Source of the DNA: a plasmid | Sequence record: NZ_CP121825.1 | Strand: one strand, 5' to 3' | Length of the DNA stretch: 7,980 bases | In this document: in pieces, positions 1,459-7,980 of the stretch | How positions within the stretch are numbered: position 1 is the stretch's first letter | How the letters are laid out: every line of letters starts with the position of its first letter | Position numbers and translations under genes: made by a program | The notes under the pieces: generated by a model | The model's database searches: none | Told to the model about the DNA's origin: nothing | The model's input: the letters and a program-made list of their open reading frames with translations, nothing else

Positions 1459-1641
1459 GTGACATATCAGAGGCTGACGAAACAAGAACTCACCGAGCTA
1501 CGGGAGGAAATGAGGGCCGCCGGAGAATGGGCTAAAACCGTCTTGGAACAAGAGCGGCGGCAGCCGGTACCAAATTGCGAATCCTGCCCTAGCACCTCAA
1601 ATTTCGTACGTACGAAAAAACCAACCCCGCTCCGTGGATAA
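1459..1641 (+). CDS. Hypothetical 60-aa protein with a GTG start (VTYQRLTKQELTELREEMRAAGEWAKTVLEQERRQ...).
   Basis: Strong Shine-Dalgarno AAAGGGGG 6 nt upstream. Present in both elements (6862-7044). Its N-terminal half is conserved, mostly through synonymous or conservative changes. Confidence 0.45.
   Translation: MTYQRLTKQELTELREEMRAAGEWAKTVLEQERRQPVPNCESCPSTSNFVRTKKPTPLRG
1577..1616. repeat. Direct-repeat unit R2 with the second TTCGTACGTACGAA palindrome.
   Basis: See R1. Confidence 0.8.
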
Positions 1642-2382
1642 GCCCTACTGCCCACAGGCCAAAAACACGGCCTGATGGACAGCCCTTCGGGAACGGGCTT
1701 AACCACCTCGCCAAGATCCTCTCTCGATTATGAAGAGCTCAAAGACAACGGCCTAAAGGCCGCGCGAAAAAGGATGTCGCAGAGCTCCCCGGTCAGCAGG
1801 CTCTCCTATCTTTCCGCTGCGCTTCAAGATAGGAGAGCCCTCCTGCTTGGCTACGTTAAAAATGACGTAGTTACACAAGATAGACTCGCCTTGCTCCGGA
1901 CTATCGAGACCGCTTGCGGCAGCTCCCTCTCACGCGCTCCAGAGACACACCCCGTCCTTGCTGCATCTGCTTTAGTCCCCGCCTGATGGCCAGACTGCCT
2001 CGCCGTTTTTTAAGAGCTGGCCGTGGTTGGTTCCCCGTTACGCTCTGCTTGCAAATGCCCCAGGGTTGCGAGTCCTGGGAGGCTGTGATGCGCGATCGCA
2101 CGCTGGGCAGTATGTGAGATTTCCCCGTTCTGCCCGACCAACCACACCCACTCACGGCAACAAACTCATGCTTCCAATCCGTGCGGGTACGACAAAGCGC
2201 CAAAGGTGGTGGCCTTTGGTAACGGGCGTAGAGAGAGGGAATGCTTGATTGATGGGCGCCAAGGAGGCTAAACTTATTAGGCTTTTAGGTGACTGCTTCC
2301 CTCTACGGAGCCGTTACCAGGTGAAGTCGGTTCCCCAACTGACTACACCTTCGAACAAACCACCTTGCCGGGTGGTTTTTTT
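1642..2382 (+). ncRNA. Candidate large structured non-coding RNA of about 740 nt, copy 1.
   Basis: No ORF is conserved between the copies (the 103-aa ORF is broken by a stop in copy 2). There are many GC-rich hairpins: GGCCtaaaGGCC, CTCTCCTAT...ATAGGAGAG and CCAAAGG..CCTTTGG. Compensatory substitutions between the copies occur at 2061-2080 (CCAGG/CCTGG against CCACG/CGTGG) and in the helix 2234-2309 (AGAGGGAA/TTCCCTCT against GCGGGAA/TTCCCGC). It ends in an intrinsic terminator. Confidence 0.5.
2357..2382 (+). terminator. Rho-independent terminator: AAACCACCttgccgGGTGGTTTTTTT.
   Basis: A stem of 6-8 bp with a 6-nt loop, followed by a 7-T run. Confidence 0.8.
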
Positions 2383-2481
2383 CGTTTCTGGCGAACAGAA
2401 CAGATCGGGCTGGTAAGGTTCAACCGAGTACTTTCCGAGATCAGCCACGCAACTGGGGAACATATCCAAGCGCATGTGCTG

Positions 2482-2715
2482 ATGACTCGTACCAATCCTA
2501 GCCGCAAGAATTTTGCGGCTATCAGCGATGAACTAACAAGGCTGCCGCACCTCACCATGATGACCTCCAAGTTGAGCCGACGGGCAGACTGGGCCAACCA
2601 GATGGAGTCCGGCTTGGGAGTAACGGAGAGAGCAGCAACTCGCAGCAGCGCAGCGGGAATGGAGGCGAAAGCATTAGCGGAAGAAGTGCGGGAAAAACTT
2701 GCCTCGCTCGCTTAA
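2482..2715 (+). CDS. Hypothetical 77-aa protein (MTRTNPSRKNFAAISDELTRLPHL...). It lies in a 245-bp segment present only in element 1.
   Basis: ORF with an internal ATG. Only the last 20 codons or so are retained in element 2. No family recognised. Confidence 0.25.
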   Translation: MTRTNPSRKNFAAISDELTRLPHLTMMTSKLSRRADWANQMESGLGVTERAATRSSAAGMEAKALAEEVREKLASLA

Positions 2716-2734
2716 TGATATTAATTTAATATCA
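2716..2734. promoter_or_regulatory. 19-bp perfect palindrome TGATATTAAtTTAATATCA. It lies 25 bp upstream of the small ribbon-helix-helix-like gene and is a likely operator overlapping its promoter.
   Basis: Conserved exactly at 7872-7890 in element 2. Confidence 0.6.
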
Positions 2735-2758
2735 AATAGATACGAAAGAGATATTAAA

Positions 2759-2999
2759 ATGGCAAGAAAACTAATCAATCTGGATGACCTTGGCGCAGGA
2801 GCCCCCCCTCAAAGAGGTGGTAGCGGCGACTGGCAGCAGAGGGAAGATCCCCACCAAGGCCAAGAATATCCAGAACATGCCGTTGGAGTTTTTTACACGC
2901 CACGCGGCGTTGAGGGAAAAGGGCAATACCAGCTTGCTATTCACTCCGTACATCATCGAAGCAGTCCGCAAAGCACTGGAAGAAGACGAACAGAGCTAA
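2759..2999 (+). pseudogene. Small protein of about 79 aa with a ribbon-helix-helix-like C-terminus (...KIPTKAKNIQNMPLEFFTRHAALREKGNTSLLFTPYIIEAVRKALEEDEQS). It is frameshifted at the 7-C run 2802-2808.
   Basis: Element 2 (7916 onwards) has 6 C and reads straight through from ATG into the ..LKEVV.. frame. Element 1 needs a -1 correction at the C-run to join ATG 2759 to the 2784-2999 frame. Confidence 0.5.
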
Positions 3000-3044
3000 C
3001 AATAGCATCACAGGCCATACCCACCAGTGGGCATGACCTCAACG

Positions 3045-3078
3045 ATAAGGGGCATCCGTTTAACGCAACGCCCCTTAT
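3045..3078. terminator. Hairpin ATAAGGGGC-(16 nt)-GCCCCTTAT between the convergent small gene and the methyltransferase gene. No clear U-run on either strand.
   Basis: A perfect 9-bp stem seen in the sequence. Possible bidirectional terminator, weak. Confidence 0.3.
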
Positions 3079-3121
3079 CTGCACTCAATTCACACTACAA
3101 TTTTGCTTTAAAGATAGATAG

Positions 3122-4186
3122 TCACACCGACTCAGATTGCATCGCAGGCGTCATATCTTGCGAGGCCAAGTTTTGGCACAAATTACAATCCAACGACACC
3201 GTGTCTCCATTCATAATCCGATTGTAAATGCTCAATACATCCTCGTCAGAGACCCCCTTATCTAGGAAGCGAAATGCGGAGGCTGCGACATACTCAGGCT
3301 GCATTTCAAATGAAATCCACTTTCGAGACTCTTTCTCAGCAACCATCCCTGTTGTGTTCGAACCGCCAAAAATGTCTACAACAAGATCACCTGGCTCGGT
3401 CAACATTCTAATAAAAAACTCAGGCAACTTTGCTGGAAATCTAGCTGGGTGGGCCTTAACCCCCACAATTTTGCAACCAGCTTGATACTGCCCATTTGAC
3501 TCAGAGTTTGGTATTTGCAGCAAATTAGGAGGAATTGCCCCTCCATTGTCATTTGCAAATGACTTCCCTATGTCATGACCGGAAGGTCTAACTTTTGGAG
3601 TATAAAATTTATCTGGATCCTCCAACAGTTTTTTCATGCGATCACTATATGGAGCCAAAACTTTAGTTATATCTGATTTTGGCCATTCCGTTTTGCTGAA
3701 CCACCAAACAGTATTAACAGCATCTTTAACCCGGATTTTTCTTTTATTAACCCACTCGATTGGGCTTGGTAGCTTAGAAGGATTAAACCAATAGAAATCT
3801 TCCGCCAAGAAGAAACCCACTTCATCAATCATCCTAATCAAAACCCTAAAGTTATATAGACTTCTTGCTGGCACCCCTTTCATATAGGCACCACCAAAAT
3901 CAACAACAAAACTACCGTCAGGCTTTAACTTTTTAAAAACCACTTTTGCAAAAGATAAAAACCAATCCACGTATTCATGCTGCTCTAAATTTCCATATTC
4001 TTTTTTCCGCTGCAACGCAAACGGAGGGCTGGTCATAACCAAGCTAACGCTCTCGTCCTGAAGAGACTCAAGAAGTTCCAGCGAGTCACCAATGTAAACA
4101 GCCCCGTTACTTGTTGTATAGGCAGGACAAATATCACTTTTCAACATCTTGTTGCTACTCATAGTCTGTAGATTCAAAGTCTTCAC
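3122..4186 (-). CDS. pvuIIM: Beta-class amino-DNA methyltransferase of the M.PvuII type (probably N4-cytosine), 354 aa.
   Basis: Motif IV TSPPF lies near the N-terminus and motif I DIFGGSNTTG near the C-terminus, which is beta-class order. GTG start at 4186 with in-frame ATGs at codons 9 and 14, which parallels the two-start arrangement of M.PvuII. It is divergently arranged with the C and R genes. Confidence 0.9.
   Translation of the reverse strand: MKTLNLQTMSSNKMLKSDICPAYTTSNGAVYIGDSLELLESLQDESVSLVMTSPPFALQRKKEYGNLEQHEYVDWFLSFAKVVFKKLKPDGSFVVDFGGAYMKGVPARSLYNFRVLIRMIDEVGFFLAEDFYWFNPSKLPSPIEWVNKRKIRVKDAVNTVWWFSKTEWPKSDITKVLAPYSDRMKKLLEDPDKFYTPKVRPSGHDIGKSFANDNGGAIPPNLLQIPNSESNGQYQAGCKIVGVKAHPARFPAKLPEFFIRMLTEPGDLVVDIFGGSNTTGMVAEKESRKWISFEMQPEYVAASAFRFLDKGVSDEDVLSIYNRIMNGDTVSLDCNLCQNLASQDMTPAMQSESV
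4156..4181. promoter_or_regulatory. Tandem C-boxes: tACTcatAGTC-TGTA-GATTcaaAGTC. Predicted binding site for the C protein and an activator/operator for the leaderless C-R transcript.
   Basis: Matches the GACT-n3-AGTC half-site pattern with a TGTA centre. It sits 24 bp upstream of the C-gene ATG and inside the N-terminal codons of the methyltransferase gene, as in PvuII. Confidence 0.6.
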
Positions 4187-4204
4187 GCGCTCATTATCTC
4201 GCGT

Positions 4205-4434
4205 ATGACAAAGAATAGAAACCCCTTATCCGCCAGAAAAATACTAGCCCACAACCTCAAAGAAAAGCGGGGGGGGAGCTAGGCCTATCACAAGAAGCTT
4301 TAGCTGACATGGCTGGGCTCCATAGAACTTATGTTGGTTCAGTAGAACGAGCAGAAAGAAACATATCCATAGATAACATTGAACGCCTAGCAAAAGCGCT
4401 CAATGTTCATCCATCATCTCTACTAATGGAATAG
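4205..4434 (+). pseudogene. pvuIIC: Controller (C) protein gene of the XRE helix-turn-helix family. It is frameshifted in the 8-G run 4269-4276.
   Basis: The first frame gives MTKNRNPLSARKILAHNLKEKRGG. The second gives LGLSQEALADMAGLHRTYVGSVERAERNISIDNIERLAKALNV. Joined, they make a typical 76-aa C protein. Nine G would be in frame. Confidence 0.8.
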
Positions 4435-4439
4435 AAGTA

Positions 4440-4920
4440 ATGTCTCATAACGATTTTGAAAAATTAAAAAAAACTATGGCCAAACATCCAGGAATACCAA
4501 GAGCTGGCAACTAAACACGGCATAAAGGATATATTTCAAGATAACGGAGGAAAACTTCTTCAGGTAATTTTAATAACGAACCTACAGGTTCTAAGCGGTA
4601 GGGAGGGTAATGATGCAGTTGATATTAATGGACAGGAGTACGAACTAAAGTCAATCAATATCGATCTAACAAAGGGCTTCTCTACTCATCATCACATGAA
4701 CCCTACAATCATTGCAAAGTACAGAAAGGTTCCATGGATATTTGCCATATACAAAAACATTGAACTCCAGGAGATATATCAGTTGGAGCCAGGTGATTTG
4801 GAATGTTACTATTCCAAGTGGGAGCAAAAATGGCATGAAGATGGAGGGAAGGACATTAACAACCCCAAAATCCCTGTTAGTTTTGTAATAGAAGTCGGAA
4901 AAAAAATATACCCTCAGTGA
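4440..4920 (+). pseudogene. pvuIIR: Restriction endonuclease gene homologous to R.PvuII, about 159 aa. It is frameshifted in the 8-A run 4466-4473.
   Basis: After the frameshift the translation is ..[81 protein letters not shown]. It shows high identity to R.PvuII as I recall it, including the catalytic D..E.K. Seven A would be in frame. The gene starts 5 bp after the C-gene stop. Confidence 0.9.
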
Positions 4921-4989
4921 CTTATAATCGCCAAGGATGGTTCGATTTCTTTACTGCGAGCCAAAAAGTCAACCCGTAACACTAAAAGT

Positions 4990-5017
4990 GGTGCGCATAA
5001 CGCCTTTTATGTTAAAC
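4990..5017. other. Second dif-like XerC/XerD site. GGTGCGCATAA-CGCCTT-TTATGTTAAAC.
   Basis: Same XerC arm and central region as site 1. The XerD arm has one mismatch to the canonical dif arm. It marks the start of the second repeated element. Confidence 0.75.
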
Positions 5018-5391
5018 CACGACTTTTAGCGGCTAAAACGGGGCACAGGCGGCAAACAGGCCGCCTGTATCGCGTTTTGGGGCGTTTCGACACACAAGGC
5101 AGGGCATTTGCAGCCTGAAAGTTTGCAACGCTTCTGAGGCGTTTTTAGGGGCGGAGCCTGCGGGGTATGGTTTTAGCCCGTTTTAGCGGCCTATCGCGCA
5201 TTAGTCTCGGTTGCCCTCCGAGCGTGTCCGACGGACGCCTGCGGGGGCCAATAGGTGAAGCAAAACGGAGTCCATCAATGGTGGGGCCAGCGGCCCCACC
5301 CTGTGGAGATCAGGGCAACACTCCCAAACGGGAGCGACTAGCGCAGTCTGTCGCGCTTCGTTCGGGAGTCGGCAAGCGCAGCGCGGCAGCC

Positions 5392-5635
5392 TTAACGACT
5401 GCTTAGATCCACCTCGATGCGGCGAAAACCGATGGTGTGCGCCGTGTTAACCCCAGCATCGATGGTCTTAAAGACCCGCCAGCCTCCGCGCTGGCGTTCC
5501 AGCACTTCCGTTTCTGCATTGCGGCCAAACTTCACCAGGTGAAGATGGTAGCCGGCCCCCATCGGGGTCGGGGCGATCACCGCTTTGGCAAAGCCCCCCT
5601 TGTTCAAATACCCACTTCGCCTTGATCTCTTCCAT
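5392..5635 (-). pseudogene. Second copy of the 80-aa gene. The N-terminus is frameshifted by one extra nucleotide at a C-run (6 C at 5594-5599 against 5 C in copy 1).
   Basis: The C-terminal 62 aa are identical to copy 1. The frame breaks at the homopolymer. Confidence 0.6.
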
Positions 5636-5994
5636 ATCAAAAACCTGTTTTGATGATTCATATCTACGTTATGACACCAACGCAGCTAAACATCAAATTA
5701 TAATTATGAATAATCAAATTCTAATTTTGATTGGTATTACTCAGGTTCGTAGAACCGCACTCGGGTTTCAAAGGGGGCGACCCTTTGGCACGCCGATAGG
5801 ATGCAGGCACGCCGACGGTACAAACGCAGTTTGTATACGTTCGGTCTCGTGCCTGTATACAGTCGGTGTCGTGCCTGTCTGTTTCTTCAATTTCTGTATG
5901 CACCTACAAAAAACCCACATAAAGGAAGCATAAAGAAGGCGATAGGGAATCAATTGGGGTGCATTTAGAAACCATTAAGGTCATATAAAACCTA

Positions 5995-6011
5995 CAGATA
6001 GATACTATCTG
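5995..6011. promoter_or_regulatory. 17-bp palindrome CAGATAGatACTATCTG upstream of the 176-aa ORF.
   Basis: Perfect 7-bp arms. The direct repeat GCATTCT occurs twice just downstream. Confidence 0.4.
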
Positions 6012-6062
6012 GGTAGCATTCTGGTACATTGGTGGGCATTCTCACTGAAAAATGACGCCGCC

Positions 6063-6593
6063 ATGCTGCCGAAACCAAGCAATAAATTCATTCCAAAGAT
6101 CGAGTCATACCTCCACCAAGGGGAGGTATCAAAACCCAAGGCAAAAGTAATCGCCCACGTCTATCCAGAAGTGGAGACGATGATCGAACAAGGCTTTTCC
6201 CTTACTCAAATCGTGGCGGCCATCAATGCGAACGATGTGGGCTTTACCATCACACTTGCCACCTTCAAAAACACCCTGCATAGGCTGCGCAAGCGCCAGA
6301 TTCAACAAGCACCGACACCGAAGAACATCACACAGCCAGCCCGTAACGCATTCCGCGAGAGGCCAAAAAAGATTCAGCACGATAACAATCCTGATCTTGA
6401 TGCGCTGCTAGATAGGCTGGGAGCTGAAGCGGGAACCTTGGCTGACTACTTAAAGGTGTGTTTCAACTCGGAATCTATCGCCAACAGGGCCATAGAGGCT
6501 GGGGTATCCATAGAGGAAATTAGGTCATGGGAATGCCCGAACCAGATCCGGCTTGGCACAAGGTTAAGCCACTTCATTAGAAGTGCATCATAA
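6063..6593 (+). CDS. Hypothetical 176-aa protein unique to element 2, with a possible helix-turn-helix segment (GFSLTQIVAAINANDVGFTITLATFKNTLHRLRKRQ).
   Basis: Long ORF occupying the slot where element 1 has the iterons. There is no clear Shine-Dalgarno at ATG 6063, and an alternative start exists near 6181 after GGAG. No confident family assignment. Confidence 0.45.
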   Translation: MLPKPSNKFIPKIESYLHQGEVSKPKAKVIAHVYPEVETMIEQGFSLTQIVAAINANDVGFTITLATFKNTLHRLRKRQIQQAPTPKNITQPARNAFRERPKKIQHDNNPDLDALLDRLGAEAGTLADYLKVCFNSESIANRAIEAGVSIEEIRSWECPNQIRLGTRLSHFIRSAS

Positions 6594-6603
6594 AGGTAAA
6601 GTG

Positions 6604-6813
6604 ATGAGTCAAAATTTAAATTTGATTGCTACGGGGAAAGAGCAATTCAGCCGATACCATGTTGCCGACTACCTGACGAACCGTGCAGACGTCTCGGCCT
6701 ACCTCAAAGCCGCCAAGGAAGAGAACGATCCGGCCCTCCTCGCTGCCGTCATGGAAGACATCCGCCAAATAGAAGCGGTGCAACATGCCAGCAAAACGCG
6801 AATCCTGCCATAG
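6604..6813 (+). CDS. Second copy of the HigA-N-like small protein. Its N-terminal half is divergent, and there is an alternative upstream ATG at 6583.
   Basis: AAGGTAAAG Shine-Dalgarno before ATG 6604. The C-terminal 35 aa are identical to copy 1, while the N-terminal half is only about 50% identical. Confidence 0.6.
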   Translation: MSQNLNLIATGKEQFSRYHVADYLTNRADVSAYLKAAKEENDPALLAAVMEDIRQIEAVQHASKTRILP

Positions 6814-6861
6814 CCATAGAGCAGCCATGAATTTCGTACGTACGAAGAAAAGAGGCACCCA

Positions 6862-7044
6862 GTGACATATCAGAAGCTGACGAAACAAGAACTCACCGAG
6901 CTACTGGAGGAAATGAGGGCGGCCGGAGAATGGGCTAAAGCCGTTTTGGAACAAGAGCGGCGGCAAACGCTAGCACATTGCGAATCCTGCACTAGCACCT
7001 CAAATTTCGTACGTACGAAAAAACCAACCCAGCTCCGTGGATAA
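6862..7044 (+). CDS. Second copy of the 60-aa GTG-start ORF.
   Basis: AAGAGG Shine-Dalgarno upstream. Same frame and length as the element-1 copy. Confidence 0.45.
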   Translation: MTYQKLTKQELTELLEEMRAAGEWAKAVLEQERRQTLAHCESCTSTSNFVRTKKPTQLRG

Positions 7045-7784
7045 GCCCTACTGCCCACAGGCCAAACACACGGCCTGATGGACAGCCCTTCGGGAACGGG
7101 CTTAACCACCTCGCCAAGATCCTCTCTCGATGATGAAGAGAGCAAAAACAACGGCCTAAAGGCCGTGCAAAAAAAGATGTCGCAAAGCTCCCCAGTTAGC
7201 CGGCTCTCCTATCGTTCCGCTGCGCTTCAAGATAGGAGAGCCCTCCTGCTTGGCTACGTTAAAAATGACGTAGTTACACAAGATTGACTCGCCTTGCTCC
7301 GGACTATCGAGACTGCTTGCGGCAGCTCCCTCTCACGCGCTCCAGAGACACACCCCGTCCTTGCTGCATCTGCTTTAGTCCCCGCCTGATGGCCAGACTG
7401 CCGCGCCGTTTTTTAAGAGCTGGCCGTGGTTGGTTCCCCGTTACGCTCTGCTTGCAAATGCCCCACGGTTGCGAATCGTGGGCGGCAGTGGTGCGCGATC
7501 GCACGCTGGGCAGTATGTGAGATTTCCCCGTTCTGCCCGACCAACCACACCCACAAACGGCAACAAACTCATGCTTCCAATCCGTGCGGGTACGACAAAG
7601 CGCCAAAGGTGGTGGCCTTCGGTAACGGGTCGAGTTGCGGGAAAAGCTTGATTGAATGGCCGAATGGCCGCTAAACTGATTAGGACTTTTGGTAGCTGCT
7701 TCCCGCACGGAGCCGTTACCAGGTGAAGTCGGTTCCCCAACTGACAACACCTTCGAAGAAACCGCCCTGCAAGGCGGTTTTTTC
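7045..7784 (+). ncRNA. Candidate large structured RNA, copy 2.
   Basis: Homologous to 1642-2382, with compensatory changes in three helices. Confidence 0.5.
7758..7784 (+). terminator. Rho-independent terminator, copy 2: AAACCGCCctgcaaGGCGGTTTTTT.
   Basis: The stem is preserved by a compensatory A:T to G:C change relative to copy 1. Confidence 0.8.
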
Positions 7785-7915
7785 GTTTCTGGTGCAACTG
7801 CAGCAGCGCAGCGGGAATGGAGGCGAAAGCATTAGCGGAAGAAGTGCGGGAAAAACTTGTTGCTCGCTTAATGATATTAATTTAATATCAAAATAGATAC
7901 GAAAGAGATATTAAA

Positions 7916-7980
7916 ATGGAAGAAAAAACCGCTAATCAATCTGATGACCTTGGCGCAGGAGCCCCCCTCAAAGAGGTGGT
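7916..7980 (+). CDS. Start of the second copy of the small ribbon-helix-helix-like protein (MEEKTANQSDDLGAGAPLKEVV...). It is truncated by the end of the window.
   Basis: In frame through the 6-C run. The same operator palindrome lies upstream. Confidence 0.45.
   Translation, partial: MEEKTANQSDDLGAGAPLKEV

Follow-up and report, generated by a model that had tools for sequence, protein, structure and literature searches.

A structured plasmid block present in two diverged copies is very probably an origin of ColE1-type, RNA-primed theta replication

Introduction

The mechanism of ColE1-type plasmid replication has been summarised previously (PMC11012335, PMC5935869). In ColE1-family origins, oriV is followed by a single-strand initiation site and by terH, and rom is absent from many members of the family (PMC5935869). 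Within Aeromonas, pAsa2 of A. salmonicida is a ColE1-type plasmid (PMC5736529), and a survey of Aeromonadales has found three-stem-loop origins of the ColE1 type there (PMC8683028). In ColE1 itself (NC_001371.1), the +1 of the preprimer, RNA II, lies at 641 and the antisense regulator, RNA I, is encoded at 645-749 on the opposite strand.

We analysed a stretch of plasmid DNA of 7980 bases, hereafter the window, which is made up of two related modules (roughly 1-2830 and 4984-7980) with a PvuII-like restriction-modification (R-M) cassette sitting between them. A block at 1642-2382 (copy A) and its counterpart at 7045-7783 (copy B) share ~95% identity, with the differences clustering at 2060-2090, 2230-2310 and 2360-2375; over 1236-2391 the identity of the two origins is 91%, i.e. 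they are a diverged pair. The block had originally been predicted, from the sequence of the two copies, to be a large structured RNA of about 740 nt. We conclude with high confidence that it is instead the origin of a ColE1-type, RNA-primed theta plasmid, present in two copies in the window. As RNA I/RNA II control of this type is textbook antisense-regulated, RNA-primed replication, and the Aeromonas lineage is already represented in papers and databases, the discovery value is small; the value lies in the annotation of plasmid DNA that has two diverged ColE1-type origins around a PvuII-like R-M cassette.

The locus resembles ColE1 and pMB1 in its three-stem-loop RNA I with a terminator, antisense to the 5' end of RNA II. 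It also resembles ColE1 in the location of the RNA I promoter in the loop of stem IV, with the same -35/18 nt/-10 layout, in the switch from stem-loop 3 (SL3) to stem IV, and in the presence of a GGTCGGGC-GAACGGGG block and a G-rich origin-proximal block. It differs from ColE1 in the inner helix of stem IV, in the sequences of the loops, in a perfect 12-bp hairpin inserted at the predicted origin, in the length of RNA II (~578 nt compared with 555 nt) and in the deletion of the native RNA II promoter from both window copies. For rom/rop, a tblastn search of the window with ColE1 Rop gave no match at E <= 10.

Plasmid records matching the block number 2356. Coverage is at least 80% in 48 of them, almost all of which are small Aeromonas plasmids with 89-96% identity, and ~2000 enterobacterial ColE1-like plasmids match the RNA I/RNA II overlap. 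One of the small Aeromonas relatives, pTM18-3, has been published as ColE1-like; together with pAsa2 and its derivatives and qnrS2 plasmids such as pVA6, it shares with the window an 80-aa 'RepB' ORF and the small ORFs of the flanking backbone. The small Aeromonas plasmids have a single origin with an intact RNA II promoter beside parG/parA or other genes, whereas the window has two diverged origins, both promoter-deleted, flanking the PvuII-like R-M cassette. An Aeromonas hydrophila plasmid (NZ_CP121797.1, 10266 bp) was considered as a natural two-origin comparator and set aside as uninformative, as it looks like a head-to-tail duplicate; a unit of ~5.1-5.6 kb appears to be doubled, with identical protein accessions annotated twice, probably through an error of assembly or because the plasmid is truly dimeric.

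Results and Discussion

RNA I and its promoter

The original prediction had recognised no RNA family in the block. A scan against Rfam, however, identified RNA I (RF00106) above the gathering score of 47 in both copies, at 2281-2385 on the + strand in copy A (54.7 bits, E = 3.8e-8) and at 7684-7786 on the + strand in copy B (57.8 bits), each match extending over model positions 1-102 of 102. ColE1, used as a control, scored 73.8 bits with RNA I at 645-749 on the − strand. The MFE folds of RNA I from both copies consist of three stem-loops, and a terminator scan showed that the third (2357-2378), together with the T-run that follows, is an intrinsic terminator. The stem of this terminator had been noted earlier (CCACC/GGTGG in copy A and CCGCC/GGCGG in copy B) and both the stem and the T-run are found here; the terminator is real (2357-2385), but it ends the 105-nt RNA I and not a transcript of 740 nt. 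We take RNA I to be an antisense copy-number regulator of ~105 nt. A likeness to group II intron domain V had also been suggested, and it did not survive the Rfam scan, in which RNA I was the sole family matched at E <= 1 anywhere in the window; the two motifs concerned, GGAGCCG and CGGTTCC, fall in two different stem-loops of RNA I.

The RNA I promoter of copy A is located at 2245-2274 on the + strand, with a -35 element TTGATT at 2245-2250, an 18-nt spacer and a -10 element TAAACT at 2269-2274, and RNA I starts ~7 nt downstream of the latter. The promoter of copy B, TTGATT-18-TAAACT at 7648-7677 (+), was read from the sequence and the conserved columns. In an alignment of 16 sequences, TTGATT and TAAACT stand out as conserved islands within ~60 nt that are otherwise divergent, and it is these divergent nucleotides, enclosed by a long-range helix, that carry the predicted RNA I promoter. 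The layout is the same as that of the ColE1 RNA I promoter, TTGAAG-18-TACACT. A generic sigma-70 scan of 1500-2600 returned no promoter, with a threshold that is too strict even for the conserved RNA I promoter.

The RNA I species of the two copies are identical in loop 2 and differ in loop 1 (CCCUCUA in copy A versus CCCGCA in copy B) and in loop 3 (UUGCCGG versus CUGCAA). In stem 1, GGUGAC and GGUAGC each pair with GUUACC via G-U wobbles, which in the RNA II sense would be A-C mismatches. Owing to this wobble asymmetry, the SL3 of RNA II may be weaker than its RNA I counterpart.

The RNA II preprimer

With both of its ends predicted, the RNA II preprimer would occupy 1811-2389 on the − strand in copy A (~575-578 nt) and 7214-7790 on the − strand in copy B. 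The +1 was placed at ~2389 (−) by transferring the offset between RNA I and RNA II in ColE1, and also on the basis of the promoters of homologues, which show a geometry of -10 plus 7 nt; their − strand promoters, such as TTGACG-18-TAACCT or TTGATC...TAACCT, end 7 nt upstream of the A in CCAGAAACG. Aligned globally with the 555-nt ColE1 RNA II, the − strand from 2389 to 1811 showed 68.3% identity over aligned letters and scored 205, compared with 61 ± 14 in shuffles (z ~10). The blocks common to both include the RNA I overlap, GGTCGGGC(A/T)GAACGGGG, GAGGGAGCT and the origin-proximal CAGG(A/G)GGGC...CCTAT, the last of which lies at 1845-1829 in the window.

Within RNA II, the GGTCGGGCAGAACGGGG block at 2123-2139 (−) aligns with nt 275-292 of ColE1 RNA II (GGTCGGGCTGAACGGGG) and shows no variation across the 16 aligned sequences. 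The G-rich ColE1 segment that it matches is presumably the one implicated in persistent hybrid formation. RNA II also contains a 6-bp hairpin at 2059-2079 (−), CCCAGG/9-nt loop/CCUGGG. At 2376-2382 (RNA II nt 8-14), seven consecutive A (T on the + strand) are found in copy A, versus six in 15 of the 15 other aligned sequences, which may be another homopolymer length error, like those considered below for the R-M genes.

The assignment of the preprimer to the − strand follows from the orientation of RNA I, from the homology to full-length ColE1 RNA II and from the positions of the promoters in homologues. It also follows from stem IV, one partner of which (2234-2241) precedes the start of RNA I and is thus outside that transcript. 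The MFE z-scores favour neither strand (-1.8 for − and -2.9 for +). In the − strand sense, stem IV has more G-U than A-C (6 sites versus 3, 44 cells versus 15), a weak signal that is confounded by MAFFT misalignment.

The same observations bear on the reading in which 1642-2382 is a single structured non-coding RNA of ~740 nt, transcribed from the + strand and ending at the terminator. Every Watson-Crick helix is possible on both strands, folding of the + strand compares no less favourably with shuffles, and the + strand has no terminator-like site from 1641, where the upstream + strand ORFs end, to 2357, which makes read-through conceivable. The terminator, however, is that of RNA I and has a conserved promoter 110 nt upstream, whereas the sigma-70 scan gave no + strand promoter near 1642; the − strand is homologous to ColE1 RNA II over its whole length, the promoters of homologues are on the − strand at 2390 and beyond, stem IV and the SL3 switch are features of RNA II, and the balance of G-U and A-C cells in stem IV leans towards a − strand transcript. 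We therefore consider a 740-nt + strand RNA very improbable. What stands of the original prediction is that the block is structured, non-coding and covarying; the strand and the ends were wrong, and the known family was missed.

It had also been stated that no reading frame survives between the two copies, which is not strictly correct, since a 73-codon ORF with a TTG start is open in both (2027-2248 = 7430-7651), and several stop-free frames persist in homologues. This could be taken to suggest that the block encodes a small protein, but the ORF has no coding signature. The codon differences between its copies are non-synonymous in 11 cases and synonymous in 4, the variable columns are distributed as 20/22/16 by codon position, and gaps fall within the range of the ORF in some homologues. 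It has no NCBIfam match and does not resemble the ORF that is annotated in the ColE1 origin, and both strands are open simultaneously, as expected of conserved G+C-rich DNA. A coding function is, in our judgement, hardly credible.

Stem IV and the fold switch

In the ColE1-type RNA II on the − strand, the folds of nascent transcripts and of homologues delimit a stem IV domain at 2218-2318, with an outer helix at 2318-2311/2225-2218 (GGUAACGG with CCGUUACC) and an inner helix at 2304-2297/2241-2234 (AGAGGGAA with UUCCCUCU). The inner helix is the long-range helix of the original prediction, AGAGGGAA (2234-2241) with TTCCCTCT (2297-2304) as against GCGGGAA/TTCCCGC in copy B, and it is confirmed here. 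In a series of folds computed at increasing length, we found that nascent RNA II of 105 nt forms three stem-loops in copy A, copy B and ColE1, and that at lengths of at least ~175-200 nt SL1 and SL2 are kept and SL3 is replaced by stem IV, again in all three. We take this to be the classical change of conformation in ColE1 RNA II, with its "alpha-beta" pairing (stem IV), reportedly described by Masukata and Tomizawa in 1986.

A closed stem IV was obtained for all 12 distinct homologue sequences folded, including those of two enterobacterial ColE1-like plasmids, although the inner helix exists in at least six sequence versions, namely AGAGGGAA/UUCCCUCU, GCGGGAA/UUCCCGC, GAGCAGGAA/UUCCUGCUC, UGUGCGAGA/UCUCGCACA, GGAGGAG/CUCCUCC and GCAGAGCG/CGCUCUGC. 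Cognate arms form Watson-Crick runs of 7-10 bp, whereas non-cognate arms form runs of 4-6 bp, with the exception of two sequences that have one helix type in common.

Covariation and conserved hairpins

Covariation was assessed in an alignment of 16 sequences, comprising both window copies, 13 Aeromonas plasmid homologues and pAsa2. Over the entire tested structure, 17 pairs show double changes, compared with 7.7 ± 1.6 when columns are shuffled (17 being reached in 0 of 500 shuffles) and 3-10 in slid controls. The hairpin at 2059-2064/2074-2079, CCCAGG/CCTGGG in copy A and CCCACG/CGTGGG in copy B, had been put forward as the first of the covarying helices; it is 100% paired in the 16 sequences, with two covarying pairs (AU in 13 and UA in 3; CG in 10 and GC in 6), and a third version, CCCTGG/CCAGGG, is found in three homologues. 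In the terminator stem, one pair is GC in 11 sequences, AU in 4 and CG in 1.

Two further perfect hairpins had been described as conserved, and both are present. The hairpin at 1801-1812/1826-1837 is near-invariant in the 16 sequences, copy B alone differing in one pair, and its near-invariance indicates sequence constraint only and carries no covariation information. The GGCC-taaa-GGCC hairpin at 1749-1762 is variable, being 94% paired with G-U variants across the alignment, and it is deleted in one homologue (L009).

The origin-proximal core and the DNA downstream

The origin-proximal core (1801-1845, −) consists of CAGGAGGGC (1845-1837) followed by the perfect 12-bp hairpin 1801-1812/1826-1837. 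It is near-invariant in the 16 sequences, pAsa2 included, while its flanks diverge, and CAGGAGGGC aligns with CAGGGGGGCGGAGCCTATGGAAA of ColE1 (nt ~530-555). From this alignment alone, which crosses two insertions relative to ColE1, the RNA-to-DNA switch (ColE1 nt 555) would map to ~1811-1830, and the exact point is uncertain because the 12-bp hairpin located there is itself an insertion compared with ColE1. The RNase H/Pol I switch would lie within the core at 1801-1845.

By the same placement, 1642-1810 would be DNA downstream of the origin, beyond the RNA-to-DNA switch. In this region, the terminator scan detected, on the − strand, CGGCC-TTTA-GGCCG (1749-1762) with a T-rich tract behind it, a terminator-like hairpin that would stop read-through of unprocessed RNA II. 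A second hairpin at 1648-1681 (−), with the core CAGGCC/GGCCTG, has a DNA fold z of -2.0, and its stem is swapped for CAGGGG/CCCCTG with another loop in three homologues (L013, L014 and L002). We propose it as a candidate single-strand initiation (primosome assembly) site of the displaced strand; it has no sequence homology with the ColE1 ssi. A putative DnaA box, CGTGGATAA at 1633-1641 (+), immediately beyond the edge of the block, was read from the sequence and matches TGTGGATAA in 8 of 9 positions. In ColE1, TGTGGATAA occurs downstream of the origin, but oriented oppositely to the DnaA-like box in the window.

Proposed mechanism

By analogy with ColE1, RNA II would be transcribed on the − strand from ~2389 leftwards for ~575 nt. 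Its 5' end would first fold into three stem-loops and, past ~170 nt, SL3 would give way to stem IV (2218-2318). In the stem IV conformer, the transcript would stay hybridised with its template near 1811-1845, RNase H would cut RNA II and DNA polymerase I would then extend the cut RNA into the leading strand, while 1642-1800 would provide functions at the DNA level, namely hairpins for lagging-strand priming and the DnaA-like box. RNA I, made from its own promoter in the stem IV loop, is complementary throughout to the first ~105 nt of RNA II, and its loops would kiss RNA II and thereby block the productive fold.

Copies A and B differ in loops 1 and 3 of RNA I and in the stem IV inner helix, and changes in the RNA I loops and stem IV are of the kind known to alter incompatibility specificity. 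The presence of two RNA I species that differ in two of three loops is relevant to incompatibility, and may bear on the compatibility of both copies.

Loss of the RNA II promoter from both copies

In 13 of 13 Aeromonas homologues, an RNA II promoter is found at the expected distance on the − strand, for example TTGACG-18-TAACCT-7-A. Beyond the RNA I terminator, this promoter is absent from both window copies and parA sequence is found instead. The homology among the plasmids ends within ~10 nt upstream of the RNA II +1, and both copies are joined to parA-internal or parA 3' sequence 2-11 nt from the +1. In copy A, the deletion junction (2391-2395) is followed by a 3' remnant of parA (2391-2715, +; parA match from 2395); relative to pAV7K, 544 bp are absent, made up of the 5' half of parA and the RNA II promoter, with a CTGT microhomology at the junction. 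Still more is missing from copy B, 7792-7797 being joined directly to the parA 3' end. Neither junction was found in the plasmid, genome and metagenome collections (searched by exact match in the case of genome_contigs and metagenome_contigs).

A promoter scan of the − strand over 2380-4300 gave no replacement for the RNA II promoter. The nearest promoter-like sequence of copy A, TTGAAC-15/17-TGTTCT/TTCTGT, is unconvincing as a sigma-70 promoter, and upstream of copy B there is only a TGnTGCAGT-like element. With the promoter missing, expression of RNA II in the window is putative; loss of the promoter lowers the likelihood that the origins are functional as they stand, but not that they descend from a ColE1-type origin.

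The two copies could accordingly be of ColE1 type by descent and inactive remnants here, with the replicon being maintained by just one of them or by an origin elsewhere than in the window. This would agree with the joining of both copies to parA so close to the +1, without the -35 and -10 of the 13 homologues, with the lack of any promoter-like site on the − strand at 2380-3120, with junctions that are unique among the collections searched, and with the homopolymer frameshifts in the neighbouring R-M genes, which are regional defects or sequencing errors. Yet over their other ~750 bp both copies are intact and match the homologues in degree of conservation, which extends to the RNA I promoter, stem IV and the origin hairpin; long-dead remnants would not be expected to look like this. 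Weak promoters at the junctions are also possible, given that the consensus scan missed the RNA I promoter too, and RNA II can run from heterologous or read-through promoters. We regard inactive remnants as unlikely.

With a ColE1-type origin as the preferred reading, the separate promoter-removing deletions might mark a recombination-prone RNA II start, or the origins might be fired by read-through or cryptic transcription. We think this quite improbable, and the same low estimate covers the related possibility of a long antisense RNA over all of RNA II, produced by + strand read-through from the upstream small ORFs. The recombination-prone and read-through readings hold if the junctions are real and not assembly artefacts. 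The deleted promoters bear, in addition, on whether the cointegrate replicates from the window origins.

Other features of the window

The PvuII-like cassette consists of a methyltransferase gene (3122-4186, −; PF01555), a C-protein HTH gene (4205-4434) and an endonuclease gene (4440-4920; PF09225). Frameshifts disrupt the C gene at a G8 run (4268-4275) and the R gene at an A8 run (~4462-4470), so that both are either pseudogenes or affected by long-read homopolymer errors. Given these frameshifts, sequencing or assembly error is a live possibility for fine details of the window.

Two arrays of repeats are present in copy A only, ~ten 11-nt periodic repeats like ACCTACAGAAT at 971-1091 and four 12-nt repeats like GACCCACAAAAA at 1111-1193, and in sequence they look like iterons or a partition site. 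The copy B counterpart of 971-1193 is different DNA (5882-6639), in which a 176-aa ORF (6063-6593) has no family match.

A perfect 14-nt palindrome, TTCGTACGTACGAA, occurs twice in each copy, at 1429-1442 and 1604-1617 and at 6833-6846 and 7007-7020. The palindromes flank a 60-aa ORF (1459-1641) and come after a 70-aa ORF with a weak match to an addiction-module antidote; they are possibly operator sites.

The 80-aa ORF mentioned above (473-715, −, and 5392-5661, −) goes under the RefSeq name 'plasmid replication protein RepB' where it occurs in homologous plasmids. Pfam gave no match for it, and there is only a weak match to NCBIfam ParC (partition-associated), and on these comparisons a role in replication looks unsupported. 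Beside this ORF, at 716-811, lies an A+T-rich region with 27-nt inverted repeats.
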